Shown here piece by piece: positions 8,297 through 11,695 of a stretch of DNA of 12,577 nt. Under the pieces are notes generated by a model. It made no database searches. It was not told the DNA's origin and saw only the letters and a list, made by a program, of their open reading frames with translations. Each line of letters opens with the position of its first letter. Positions within the stretch are counted from its first letter, which is position 1. Origin of the DNA: a virus (Duplodnaviria; Heunggongvirae; Uroviricota; Caudoviricetes); IMG/VR virus record IMGVR_UViG_2675903368_000004; one strand, given 5' to 3'. The position numbers and the translations under genes are program-made.

Positions 8297-8322
8297 AAAT
8301 AAAAAAACCCGCCAGCGGCGGG
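8297..8322 (-). terminator. Strong intrinsic-terminator-like hairpin immediately upstream of the major tail gene SD
   Basis: Minus-strand RNA CCCGCC-GCU-GGCGGG (6 G:C pairs) followed by UUUUUUUAUUUU, then CAGGAGACGAGU-AUG of the major tail gene. Confidence 0.55.
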
Positions 8323-8343
8323 TGGGTAAAATCATTAATGACC

Positions 8344-8688
8344 TCAGGCTATTACCTGGAATTCAAGCGTGGCTCTGCTCAGACGGGAGTCAGGATCATA
8401 ACCCTGCGTTTTAGAAATAACGGAGGGTGCCAGTTTTCTTACCGCATCAAGCGCCTGCTCACGAATATTATCTGCGTCATCAGGTACTGTCGCCCAGACA
8501 TCGATCTGCACGGTAATTCTGGATTCAGCCTGCCCATCAAGCACATCAGATACCGTGTCAGACACCACAGAAAACACCAGCCACGGCGGAGATACCGCAG
8601 GCTTTCCCTCCGTCAGCGGGACCACATAAGGATAAACCTGTCCTCCGGCCAGCTGAGACAACAGGGAATACAGTGTGGCCTCCCTCAT
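8344..8688 (-). CDS. Tail terminator / tail completion-like protein (assigned by position and size)
   Basis: 114-aa ORF, ATG overlapping the upstream stop (ATGA); last gene before the major tail gene. No sequence family confidently recognised. Confidence 0.6.
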   Translation of the reverse strand: MREATLYSLLSQLAGGQVYPYVVPLTEGKPAVSPPWLVFSVVSDTVSDVLDGQAESRITVQIDVWATVPDDADNIREQALDAVRKLAPSVISKTQGYDPDSRLSRATLEFQVIA

Positions 8689-9131: not shown

Positions 9132-9469
9132 CACACATTCCCCTTCAGGCTGCAGAGTATTTCAAGCCGGGTAGCGCGTGCATCCGGTATTGGTGGACCT
9201 TCTATACCCAGAATGGCCCCTTTAAATGCACCGGTCAGCACTTTTAGACATGAAGTTGCTGTTACATCTCGCCGGAATCTCATCCAGACTCTGACCGTAG
9301 CCTGAGCGGTTTCTGCTCCGCCTGAGATTATCTCCCTCCCGCTGATACCCTTAACTTCTGCCCATACGGTAGCTCCCTCCGTCACCGTCTCCACCGGATG
9401 CCCTGACGGAGAGCGGGCGGTGGTGACATTCAGAATAATTACGCGATCACGTAATCTGCCCGCCTGCAT
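9131..9469 (-). CDS. Head closure / head-tail adaptor protein (assigned by position and size)
   Basis: 112-aa ORF, ATG 9469 with AGGAGG 4 nt upstream; second gene after the capsid gene. Family not confidently recognised from sequence. Confidence 0.6.
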   Translation of the reverse strand: MQAGRLRDRVIILNVTTARSPSGHPVETVTEGATVWAEVKGISGREIISGGAETAQATVRVWMRFRRDVTATSCLKVLTGAFKGAILGIEGPPIPDARATRLEILCSLKGNV

Positions 9470-9477
9470 GCCTCCTC

Positions 9478-9795
9478 CTACAAAGGAATAAAACGATAAG
9501 GCTCCAGCAGAGAAGAAAAACCAAACGGGACTGGTGCCTTGCTGACATCTGAGGAATTTTCCCGGTTTTCGTACCAGTGCCCGACCAGCAACATGAGCGC
9601 CAGCAAAACATCATCAGCTATAAGCACCCCTTCAGGATCACCTTCCGGCACCGTCTCCTCATAAAGCTTACGGTTGATAAAATTTTCTGCCTTGCGGCAG
9701 GCAGCCCGGAAATACAGCATCAGTAACTCATCATCAGTTGCATCATCTGTATCAATACGGCACTGCGCCCTGAGTTTTTCCACTATTGCTGCCAT
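9478..9795 (-). CDS. gp6-like head-tail connector protein
   Basis: 105 aa from ATG 9795 (AGGAG 6 nt upstream): MAAIVEKLRAQCRIDTDDATDDELLMLYFRAACRKAENFINRKL..., acidic N-terminus typical of gp6-like connectors. The 165-aa track ORF starts at a TTG inside the capsid gene and is rejected. Confidence 0.7.
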   Translation of the reverse strand: MAAIVEKLRAQCRIDTDDATDDELLMLYFRAACRKAENFINRKLYEETVPEGDPEGVLIADDVLLALMLLVGHWYENRENSSDVSKAPVPFGFSSLLEPYRFIPL

Positions 9796-9806
9796 CAGAA
9801 ACTCCT

Positions 9807-9850
9807 GCCCGCAACACTGTGCGGGCATAAAAAAACCGCGTCGGCGCGGT
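9807..9850 (-). terminator. Tandem hairpins after the major capsid gene: terminator-like hairpin plus a second GC hairpin abutting the next SD
   Basis: Minus-strand RNA ACCGCG-CCGA-CGCGGU + UUUUUU (9829-9850), then GCCCGC-ACAGUGUU-GCGGGC (9807-9826) immediately 5' of AGGAG-N6-AUG of the connector gene. Confidence 0.6.
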
Positions 9851-9871
9851 CTGTAACTGAACAACGAGTGG

Positions 9872-11089
9872 TTATTTGCCAGTGAGCGCCTTGATGGCTG
9901 CCACATCTTCCAGCACACAGTCAAAACGATGGAAAGCCAGAAATGCCACCTGATCAAACTCAGCATAACGCTCAACCAGACGTTTCAGTTCCATATAAGT
10001 AACGCGGCGAATGATAAAGCGGTTGAAATCCCCCAGGAAAATGAATTTTTTTCCGGTACCAATCCCGTCAATAGCCTGATCAATAACATAAGGGATCCCC
10101 AGCACAGTAGCCGGCGTACCGCCTGCAATATCCGGCAGCCATAACGGGCGTTTCTGTCCATCCTCCATCTCTTCAATAGTCTGCAATGTGGCATCATTGA
10201 ATGCCCAGCGGTATTTCGGCCCACCACGATATGCCGGATCAATGGCATGTTTCAGGGCATTCATTTCTTTCCAGGTGAAAGCGGCAGAGGCTGCAGTCTG
10301 GATGGTTCCCGTCACCGACGCTGCCAGCCCTTTTGGCTGTAACGGTGATCCCGTTCCGGTCCCCTGAACCAGATATTTTGCCTCTCCACGACCAATACGC
10401 TGGGCAATACGGTTTGCCAGATAAGATTCAATATCCACCCCACTGTCCTGGAGCAGCTCATTGGACACACGAATTATTTTTGATGACAGCTTTTTAGCCC
10501 CCAGAATAGCGGTCCCGAACGTCACATCCTGTTCCGTTGCGGCTGTATTTTCCGCCAGCAGTTCGCCCTCTTCAGTCGTGCCATCAGACGTTGACCAGGT
10601 GATATCCTGCCCGGTTGATGTGGTCAGAAGTTGCGCCACACTGGCAATCCCGCCATAAGCCTTCATGGTGTCAATGATTTTGTTACGCATCTGCGTGGGC
10701 ACCGTATATCCGCCCTGAGAATCCGTTGTTACACTCTGAGCCCGCAGTTCACGCATCAGATTACGCTCTTCAGCATTCAGTTCTGCAAATCCGGCACGCA
10801 GAAAACGGTTAAATGCCGCAGCACGCTTCTCTTCCACCGCCTTTTTCCCGTTCTCCGCCTCATTATTCTGGCGCTCTTCCGGCCCGGACTCATCCACATA
10901 TGCCTGATCCTGACGGCGCAACTCTTCTTCACGGGCGATTTGCTCATCCAGCGCATCCAGCTCAGCTTTCGCCCTGTTCCACTCTGCCCGTTGCTCATCA
11001 GTCCATGCGTTATCACCAATTTTTTCATGCAGTGCACGCATATCCTTTGCAATGGTGTTTCGTTTTTGCTTCATCTCATGAAGTTTCAT
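9872..11089 (-). CDS. Major capsid protein, HK97-fold, with N-terminal scaffold-like (delta) domain
   Basis: 405-aa ORF directly downstream of the prohead protease with no separate scaffold gene; first ~115 aa highly charged/coiled-coil-like (MKLHEMKQKRNTIAKDMRALHEKIG...AELDALDEQIAREEELRRQ...), remainder typical in size for an HK97-type capsid. Not identical to HK97 gp5 as I recall it. Confidence 0.88.
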   Translation of the reverse strand: MKLHEMKQKRNTIAKDMRALHEKIGDNAWTDEQRAEWNRAKAELDALDEQIAREEELRRQDQAYVDESGPEERQNNEAENGKKAVEEKRAAAFNRFLRAGFAELNAEERNLMRELRAQSVTTDSQGGYTVPTQMRNKIIDTMKAYGGIASVAQLLTTSTGQDITWSTSDGTTEEGELLAENTAATEQDVTFGTAILGAKKLSSKIIRVSNELLQDSGVDIESYLANRIAQRIGRGEAKYLVQGTGTGSPLQPKGLAASVTGTIQTAASAAFTWKEMNALKHAIDPAYRGGPKYRWAFNDATLQTIEEMEDGQKRPLWLPDIAGGTPATVLGIPYVIDQAIDGIGTGKKFIFLGDFNRFIIRRVTYMELKRLVERYAEFDQVAFLAFHRFDCVLEDVAAIKALTGK

Positions 11090-11103
11090 CGTCAGTAGTA
11101 TCC

Positions 11104-11695
11104 TTATGCATTAAGAAGGGTCAAAAGACGCTCACGCGCCATTCGTTCGTTAACAGCTTTCTTCAGCGCACCACTCGCCCGCGCTTCCTGCCAGGCTTTC
11201 ATTGAGCGGACACCAGAGTCTGCGTCCTGATAGGCCGGATATGTCACCGGGCTGACGTCATACAGACGAGAAATGCGCGTGATTTCCCGGATAACAATCC
11301 CCTCGTCGTCTTCATACCAGCTCTCTCCGTCACGGGCGACACGAAACGCGAACGAGGACTGATTAATGTCACCACGCAACATTGGAGACAGCACCAGGTC
11401 ACAAATAGTCGGAGTATCCGGTGCAACAATGTCATAACGTAAACCGCGTTCATCCACCGACAATGACAACGTGCCGGCAGAACTTCGTCCGAGAATGAAA
11501 TTAGGATCATGATTAAACAAGCCACGTACATCATCATTCAGTACATCATCAAAAGCCCCCGGCTTGATGATTTCACGAAATCCCCACAGAGGTTCTGAAC
11601 GACTGTTAAATACCGAGCCATACCCCAGAATGTGGGTCGGGGCATTATCATATTGTTCCGCCCGCACCTCCCCGCTGTAACAGCGCGTTTCACGG

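Follow-up and report, generated by a model that had tools for sequence, protein, structure and literature searches.

The window analysed here is the whole 12,577-nucleotide stretch of a Caudoviricetes virus record (IMGVR_UViG_2675903368_000004), an E. coli prophage in which all genes are located on the minus strand; the hairpin coordinates given below are likewise read on that strand. The ORF list and translations place the major capsid protein gene at 9872..11089, with a TAA stop codon at 9874-9872. Its 405-aa product has the HK97 fold, matches PF05065 Phage_capsid (237.8 bits) and phrog_10 (E = 2e-103), and is 100% identical to the capsid protein of phage Evi. It is followed at 9478..9795 by the gene of a 105-aa head-tail adaptor, Ad1, a gp6-like connector whose ATG lies at 9795-9793 and whose translation matches PF05135 (52.8 bits) and phrog_40 (E = 8e-35). 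Genes for head closure, neck or tail completion, the tail terminator, the major tail protein, the tail chaperones and the tape-measure protein come next. These profile matches agree with an earlier note on this DNA, which had placed a capsid gene upstream and a connector gene downstream of the feature under study. Over the 1.8 kb of the capsid region (9400-11200), the window shares 99.7-99.8% identity with nine E. coli phage records, the value for Evi being 99.8%. In this near-identical phage, a Q antiterminator gene (PF03589, 127.7 bits) has been detected upstream of the lysis, terminase and head genes.

The gap between the capsid and adaptor genes measures 76 nt and reads, from 5' to 3' on the minus strand, as TAA, 21 nt, the core of a first hairpin (hp1), U7, A, a second hairpin (hp2), GGAG, UUUCUG and AUG. 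The spacer from the stop codon to hp1 (9853..9871) is unconserved among relatives. The terminator hairpin hp1 (9833..9852), identified from a terminator scan, folding and the presence of its stem in 58 variants, has a 6-bp core formed by ACCGCG (9850-9845) and CGCGGU (9840-9835) around a CCGA tetraloop (9844-9841); A-U and G.U pairing to the initial U residues lengthens the stem to 8 bp (9852-9833). The U7 tract of the terminator (9829..9835), which is read directly from the sequence and belongs to a U-run nearly invariant in the alignment, is the sole single-stranded stretch between hp1 and hp2, and the two hairpins are separated by 5-8 nt. The second hairpin (9806..9827), recognised from folding, 39 distinct sequences and compensatory changes, is an 8-bp stem without a U tail, in which the arms UGCCCGCA (9827-9820) and UGCGGGCA (9813-9806) enclose a CAGUGU loop. 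The Shine-Dalgarno (SD) sequence of the adaptor gene, GGAG (9802..9805), lies flush with the 3' base of hp2. The coordinates given to the element in the earlier note (9807-9850), its offset of 22 nt from the stop codon and the tetraloop were all right; the second hairpin does abut the SD of the next gene as had been described, but it is 8 bp in full rather than 6, the latter figure having counted the inner pairs.

Two further terminator-like hairpins are present on the minus strand of the same operon. One of these (8301..8323), with the sequence ACCCGCC-GCU-GGCGGGU followed by U7, lies between the tail terminator and major tail genes; no second hairpin accompanies it, and the U-rich tail leads straight into the AGGAG of the high-copy major tail gene. 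The other (6859..6882), AACCGC-UUCG-GCGGUU followed by a U-run, is found after the tail assembly chaperone gene and ahead of the tape-measure gene start. Promoter-like matches in the window were not above chance, and no conserved promoter was detected before the capsid gene. A T7-like unit of promoter, capsid gene and terminator, based on a sigma-70-like promoter at 11124-11097, was considered and rejected, as the -10 element is not conserved in relatives.

Folding and terminator features of the two hairpins

The earlier note had proposed a folding free-energy calculation as a check on the element, and in this calculation both hairpins were more stable than all 200 dinucleotide shuffles made of each sequence. 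The predicted folds have energies of -11.2 kcal/mol for hp1 (z = -3.3), -18.5 kcal/mol for hp2 (z = -5.9) and -29.7 kcal/mol for the two jointly (z = -5.9), with 0/200 shuffles as good in each of the three cases. A consensus terminator scan ranked hp1 second-best of the 18 sites in the window (8 pairs, 5 of them GC, and a loop of 4); set against a shuffle expectation of 11.6 +/- 3.4 sites, however, this total makes the scan alone weak proof. An alternative pairing between the arms of hp1 and hp2, which might have acted as a switch, was rejected as a candidate, since it would comprise only 4 bp (CCGC/GCGG) with an 11-nt loop and be far weaker than the local hairpins. Rfam 15, which would cover any curated family of cis-antitermination elements, leaders or riboswitches, gave zero matches at gathering score in the whole window, and a search of 9400-10200 at E <= 10 returned only chance-level snoRNA matches (E >= 0.25).

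Intrinsic terminators were recognised by a GC-rich stem of about 5-14 bp, a short loop, a U-tract immediately 3' of the stem and a position beyond the reach of terminating ribosomes. The first hairpin has a GC-rich stem, a short loop and a contiguous U7, and is located 21 nt past the TAA codon; it thus has every sequence feature of an intrinsic terminator, which bears out its earlier description as terminator-like. E. coli-type intrinsic termination requires a U-tract adjacent to the stem, and hp2 lacks one, GGAG coming next. Given the missing U tail and the SD immediately downstream, hp2 is probably not a standard terminator. A bidirectional terminator was also considered and rejected, as the plus strand shows A-runs and no U-runs after either hairpin.

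Conservation, covariation and mobility

Relatives of the capsid gene were drawn from IMG/VR, from a set with one genome per species and from GenBank phages. Among Enterobacterales prophages with capsids 65-100% identical to that of the window, 58 distinct variants of the element have been found, and hp1, the U-tract and hp2 are kept in all of them, whereas no such conservation is seen in the spacer that follows the stop codon. The stem of hp1 is of the CCGC/GCGG type in each of the 58 variants and comprises 4-8 bp, with a U-run of 6-8 residues in every case. The second hairpin is always far stronger than the first, with minimum free energies of -14 to -26 kcal/mol in the relatives, as against -5.6 to -10.1 for hp1. 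It abuts the SD or sits a few nucleotides away in 58/58 variants, the gap being 0-2 nt wherever the script found an SD; in the remaining variants the hp2 stem includes the first G of the SD, or C or CA precedes a GGG-type SD.

The two helices are also supported by the pattern of base changes. In the alignment, 94% of pair cells are paired, compared with 28-50% after the 3' partners are slid by 1-3 columns, and RNAalifold recovers both helices unguided. Compensatory double changes occur in hp2 at the pairs 30-62 (AU/GC/GU), 35-57 (CG/UA) and 37-55 (CG/UA/UG). There are 39 distinct hp2 sequences, with stems of 8-15 bp and loops which include AUCU, UUCG, CAGUGU and GUAA, and the apex varies in both length and sequence and nonetheless stays complementary. 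This variability, together with the compensatory changes, indicates selection on pairing rather than on sequence identity. The cores of the stems are nearly invariant, which results in modest covariation per column, and part of the conservation may reflect a recent spread of the block by recombination. Taken from the comparison of relatives, the conservation excludes chance and indicates that both hairpins are real. A conserved RUG at the foot of hp2 raised the candidate of a small ORF or an N-terminal extension of the adaptor, which was rejected because the frame is not conserved: it matches the adaptor in the window and in one related locus (L070), and is out of frame in three others (L064, L072 and L083). 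The AUG or GUG at this position covaries with CAU or CAC as a base pair (pair 30-62).

Beyond these prophages, one GC-rich hairpin has been detected in the capsid-adaptor gap of distant relatives whose capsids are about 30-64% identical to that of the window, including Pasteurellaceae, Vibrio phage K396, Serratia phage PhooPhighters, Marinobacter, Aeromonas, Ralstonia and others. Where relatives possess a gap at this position, it nearly always contains such a hairpin, which is followed by a U-run in AT-rich hosts and is often without one in GC-rich hosts. These comparisons indicate that the hairpin after the capsid gene is an old positional feature, and its retention down to about 30% capsid identity fits a role linked to the capsid. 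The second hairpin appears as an addition, found only in the Enterobacterales branch (SfV, Evi and Klebsiella) among the relatives compared.

The element is also encountered behind a capsid gene of a different lineage. In five IMG/VR contigs the capsid is 23-25% identical to that of the window and its stop codon lies inside the hp1 loop (GCCGCUGCG-UAA-UGCGG), and the sequence continues with the same U-run, hp2, SD and adaptor gene; in 3/5 of these (L240 and two of the L251 type) hp2 is identical to that of the window. The same hp1 and hp2 precede different adaptor alleles, and some complete E. coli genomes lose homology to the window at 9806 or at 9833 (H83, H84). Such junctions indicate that the cassette is mobile and is passed on as a whole among head modules belonging to different capsid lineages. 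A motif scan of IMG/VR with GCGGTTTTTTN{0,2}RTGCCCG gave at least 120 loci and, among the matches listed, 77 had no homologue of the window capsid upstream. In 21 of the 77 loci listed the GCCCG was inside a hairpin, as against 13.6 +/- 3.3 after shuffling, and the flanking genes were heterogeneous, so that a general phage motif composed of a U-run, RUGCCCG and a hairpin was rejected as mostly pattern-selected chance.

Comparison with known systems

The closest layout is that of the E. coli lambdoid phage HK97 (NC_002167), a phage of the same kind as that of the window, for which putative terminators have been annotated at 5192-5213 after gp5, at 6692-6719 before the major tail gene, at 7443-7462 and at 8398-8422. 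The first of these occupies the same position as the element of the window, after a capsid gene of the HK97 fold and before a gp6-type adaptor gene; the operon layout is shared, and the hairpin of the window at 8301-8323 is homologous to the HK97 site at 6692-6719. The HK97 gap, however, measures 33 nt and holds a single hairpin, GGGCGGG-GAAA-CCCGCCC followed by UUUU, with a GGAGG upstream of it, whereas the 76-nt gap of the window has a terminator and then a second hairpin preceding the SD. The authors of the HK97 genome paper are said to have discussed such hairpins as possible message stabilisers. In phage SfV (U82619), whose capsid is 69% identical, a putative rho-independent terminator has been annotated at 5547-5584 in the homologous gap. 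This gap reads CCGCGUAAUGCGG-U7-GUGCCCGCGUUCUGGCGGGCAC-AGGAGG, which corresponds to hp1, U7 and hp2 in the same order, although the annotation covers only the second hairpin and the spacer between SD and AUG, and leaves the first hairpin with the true U-tract unannotated.

A terminator directly downstream of the most abundant structural gene is shared with T7, in which a single terminator, Tphi, directly follows the capsid gene 10 and RNA levels fall beyond it (PMC6938266); phage LUZ100 has been described in the same terms, with a terminator after the capsid gene (PMC10134795). T7 differs in having its own RNA polymerase, a dedicated promoter before gene 10 and partial read-through, whereas the window would be transcribed by the host polymerase under Q antitermination. 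A second hairpin abutting the SD is likewise a feature of the window, and none is noted for T7 in the portion of the source drawn on here (PMC6938266). The WebGeSTer database describes a tandem class of "U-shaped" terminators, in which a stop codon is followed by two co-directional hairpins separated by less than 50 nt (PMC3013805). The pair in the window resembles this class, with hp1 L-shaped, given its U trail, hp2 I-shaped and less than 50 nt between them; it differs from it in that hp2 is fixed beside the SD of the next gene, in an operon that needs read-through, and its role is probably not termination.

For translation, the nearest comparison is offered by the standby-site experiments of Espah Borujeni et al., in which translation became several-fold lower per 4 nt of single-stranded flank lost, and likewise per 4 bp added to the upstream hairpin (PMC3936740). 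The arrangement studied here is similar to these synthetic sites, with a hairpin of 8-15 bp located 5' of the SD, a proximal flank of about 0 nt and a distal flank of 5-9 U-rich nucleotides. Those constructs were synthetic and placed at mRNA 5' ends, whereas hp2 is intercistronic and its distal site is the U-tract of a terminator. An RNase III processing site of the T7 R-site type, with about 20 bp, was also considered as a counterpart and rejected, as the stems are too short, with 8 bp for hp2 of the window, 8-15 for hp2 of relatives and 4-8 for hp1.

Possible roles in late gene expression

A virion requires capsid subunits in the hundreds but connectors in a number of about a dozen. On the late minus-strand transcript, hp1 and the U7 tract would constitute an intrinsic, Rho-independent terminator, at which polymerase unmodified by Q, whether from stray transcription in the lysogen or through loss of the modification, would stop. 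Transcripts ending at hp1 or trimmed back to it would carry a 3' hairpin, and the capsid message would in this way be shielded from 3' exonucleases, while Q-modified polymerase would read through hp1 to the connector and tail genes during lytic growth. The best reading of these features is that hp1 may serve as a leaky terminator and a 3'-end stabiliser which favours the capsid mRNA. Lambda late-gene expression ratios are reportedly set mainly by translation. Lambdoid Q proteins confer terminator resistance on late transcription (summarised in PMC11150451) and, by analogy, Q-driven read-through should also take place at hp1. As Evi encodes Q, read-through in lytic growth would probably depend on antitermination and not on the leakiness of the terminator. 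The earlier proposal that partial termination or a stabilising hairpin at this site tunes stoichiometry retains the support of a conserved hairpin that fits a role linked to the capsid, but a simple transcriptional step-down has become less certain with Q present in Evi; should the Q-modified polymerase ignore hp1 fully, any effect on stoichiometry would rest wholly on RNA stability and translation. The connection once drawn with a junction between high-copy and low-copy genes is not a specific one, as similar hairpins are also located ahead of two other genes of the operon, those of the high-copy major tail protein and of the tape-measure protein.

Several steps can be proposed for hp2 in the read-through RNA. 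By leaving nearly no single-stranded standby surface upstream of the SD, it could lower or insulate initiation of translation on the adaptor gene. It could also block 3' exonucleases or, once the U-rich linker has been cleaved, serve as a 5' cap, and from the predicted stabilities it should be a much better exonuclease barrier than hp1. The most likely role is that hp2 throttles or insulates adaptor translation, blocks exonucleases, or does both. The suggestion in the earlier note that this hairpin modulates initiation at the connector gene gains from its SD-abutting position in 58/58 variants and from the standby model, which predicts lower initiation (PMC3936740), but is weakened in the window itself by the slight sequestration predicted for the SD. 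An internal contrast, in which the terminator before the major tail gene has no hairpin ahead of the AGGAG, supports translational throttling by hp2.

In most relatives hp2 would also bring the U-tract beside the purine-rich SD and so allow the two to pair: as the hairpin directly adjoins U7 at its 5' base and the SD at its 3' base, U-A and U.G pairs can lengthen the helix. In ViennaRNA ensembles, the mean probability that the SD is paired was 0.81 in relatives bearing hp2 (0.54 for pairing with the U-tract) and 0.58 in relatives without it, a comparison whose p-value is unreliable, since the sequences are related and some start codons of the comparison group are uncertain. The value for the window itself, 0.58 (0.21 with the U-tract), equals the baseline of the relatives without hp2. 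Sequestration of the SD by the U-tract in hp2-bearing relatives is, on these predicted ensembles, a lead and not a result. It can be advanced tentatively that hp2 is a dedicated translational throttle which reuses the U-tract of the terminator as an anti-SD, in which case a single 45-nt cassette would determine where the capsid mRNA ends and also hold translation of the connector block at a low rate. It is on balance probable that the two elements act in combination, with hp1 as terminator or stabiliser and hp2 as throttle or barrier, and that more capsid is thereby made per connector protein.

Other explanations account for parts of the same evidence. Terminators within a late operon may act as a firewall, stopping polymerase that lacks the late promoter and Q and so keeping the virion genes silent in the lysogen, with their position determined by the available intergenic space. 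Consistent with this, terminator-like hairpins with U-runs occur three times in the operon of the window, the layout recurs in HK97 with its four annotated putative terminators, Evi carries Q and, in the portion of a review on conjugation operons drawn on here, multiple intra-operon terminators are described as mitigating spurious transcription (PMC8955417). Such a function leaves unexplained both hp2, which has no U tail and lies flush with the SD, and the occurrence of a hairpin in the exact capsid-adaptor gap of very distant relatives, including those from GC-rich hosts in which the U-run is missing, which makes it rather unlikely as the account of the element; it is compatible with the combined action of hp1 and hp2 preferred above and does not exclude it. 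The single-stranded linker between hp1 and hp2 may instead be a processing site. RNase E favours sites of this type, in which a U-rich linker is flanked by stems, and cleavage within the U7AU sequence would divide the polycistronic late RNA in two, leaving hp1 at the 3' end of a stable capsid mRNA and hp2 as a protective hairpin at the 5' end of the downstream message. A U-rich single strand of 5-9 nt between stable stems is kept in 58/58 variants, the scheme would operate even with complete Q read-through of hp1, and RNase cleavage and degradation shape late RNA expression in T7 (PMC6938266). The geometry, however, follows trivially from a terminator beside any hairpin and, as the 8 bp of hp2 are too short for RNase III, only cleavage of the RNase E type fits; processing as the main function is considered improbable. 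It overlaps with the part of the preferred reading in which hp2 is a barrier or a 5' cap.

A back-up or booster function of hp2, raising the efficiency of termination at hp1, would place the pair in the catalogued class of tandem terminators with hairpins less than 50 nt apart (WebGeSTer, PMC3013805), and clusters of hairpins have been claimed to terminate better than single ones (PMC8355165). The GenBank record of SfV also marks hp2 and the following AGGAGGUUUUAUG as a putative terminator. Nevertheless, it is the SD that follows hp2, any U-rich stretch found 5-7 nt past the stem is the variable spacer between SD and AUG, and an efficient double terminator would starve the connector and tail genes, so that this function is very unlikely. 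The least probable of the explanations, to a degree that it deserves little credence, is that the 45-nt block serves, or merely survives, as a homology patch for swaps of head and connector modules between mosaic phages, in which the RNA structures are incidental. It would agree with the U-tract, hp2 and adaptor found behind the capsid lineage of 23-25% identity whose stop codon lies in the hp1 loop, with the different adaptor alleles behind the same hp1 and hp2, and with the breaks in E. coli homology at 9806 and 9833 (H83, H84). Against this stand the compensatory changes and the length-variable, complementary apex of hp2, and any conserved block between genes would be expected to show mosaic joints as a side effect.

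The element is an example of the post-capsid terminators already known from HK97-like late operons, and its homologue in SfV has been annotated before; what has been described less is the conserved second hairpin abutting the SD. If the proposed roles are true, very different protein outputs would be obtained from one antiterminated transcript without extra promoters, and a terminator or stabiliser hairpin together with an SD-abutting hairpin would be a combined means of setting ratios, a small step beyond what can already be gathered from HK97, SfV and T7. The cassette is common in E. coli and in many Enterobacterales prophages and could consequently provide a compact, portable part for setting ratios in synthetic operons. 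Among 5,426 complete E. coli genomes the element is present in 713, and its location is always chromosomal.

The hairpin pair behind a different capsid lineage

The terminator hairpin that follows the major capsid gene in the window (hp1) and the second, stronger hairpin abutting the Shine-Dalgarno sequence (SD) of the adaptor gene (hp2) also occur behind a capsid gene of another lineage. In five IMG/VR contigs (L268, L155, L200, L240, and L251) this capsid gene, with 23-25% identity, has its TAA stop codon within the loop of hp1, and the U-run, hp2 and the adaptor gene again follow downstream. A ribosome positioned at the loop-embedded stop codon would melt the 5' arm of the terminator, so that termination at hp1 in this arrangement could be sensitive to translation.

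Counterparts in known phages and in the late operon

In phage SfV (L082), the feature annotated as a "putative rho-independent terminator" (U82619, 5547-5584) spans the second hairpin and the spacer between the SD and the AUG, whereas the first hairpin, which bears the real U7 tract, carries no annotation in the GenBank record. An annotated HK97 "putative terminator" is the homologue of another hairpin of the window, located at 8301-8323 on the minus strand, where it separates the tail terminator gene from the major tail gene. This hairpin and one at 6859-6882 (minus strand), which separates the tail chaperone gene from the tape-measure gene, are both followed by a U-run, have a canonical terminator-like form and belong to the same late operon as hp1 and hp2; a second hairpin is absent at both of these sites in the window. 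The post-capsid hairpin of HK97 (L271, 670-730; HK97 5169-5229) has a GGAGG upstream and the gp6 AUG just downstream, which places it between an apparent SD and the start codon. This arrangement is possibly a split ribosome-binding site.

Hairpins of other relatives and unrelated phages

In three Pasteurellaceae prophages (L107, L108, and L111), a terminator-like hairpin with a U-run precedes the capsid start by approximately 50 nt and, as one is also found downstream, the capsid gene is bracketed by hairpins. Among the loci listed by an IMG/VR motif scan, L169, L243, L183 and similar loci, which represent some unrelated phage contexts, display a U-run followed by GCCCGGAG. Inspection by eye indicated that the preceding terminator contains, in its loop and 3' arm, the sequence CUCCGGGC, to which GCCCGGAG is complementary; given this complementarity, the terminator could pair with the SD of the next gene.

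Neighboring features of the window and of E. coli 042

A sigma-70-like match (TTGACC-16-GATACT; 11097-11124, minus strand) just upstream of the capsid start was considered as a promoter and rejected: its -10 element is not conserved among the relatives and promoter-like matches across the window are no more common than expected by chance, making the match probably fortuitous.

The tape-measure gene is divided into two minus-strand ORFs of 70 aa (6850..6638) and 1005 aa (6635..3618). Comparison of this region (6633-6850, minus strand) with the near-identical E. coli phage Evi revealed one C fewer in the window (ACAG-TAAAT vs. ACAGCTAAAT; indel between 6654 and 6655), which shifts the reading frame. 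The split reflects either a defective prophage or a sequencing error.

In E. coli 042 (L272; NC_017626, approximately 2235724-2244100), the PGAP annotation has a terminase (TerL) fragment, incomplete at its N terminus, immediately before the portal gene of this prophage type. The fragment is in turn preceded by a block that has capsid, protease, portal, connector, HNH and terminase genes of its own; this block resembles a satellite, or a second element, that has inserted at or close to the terminase gene.
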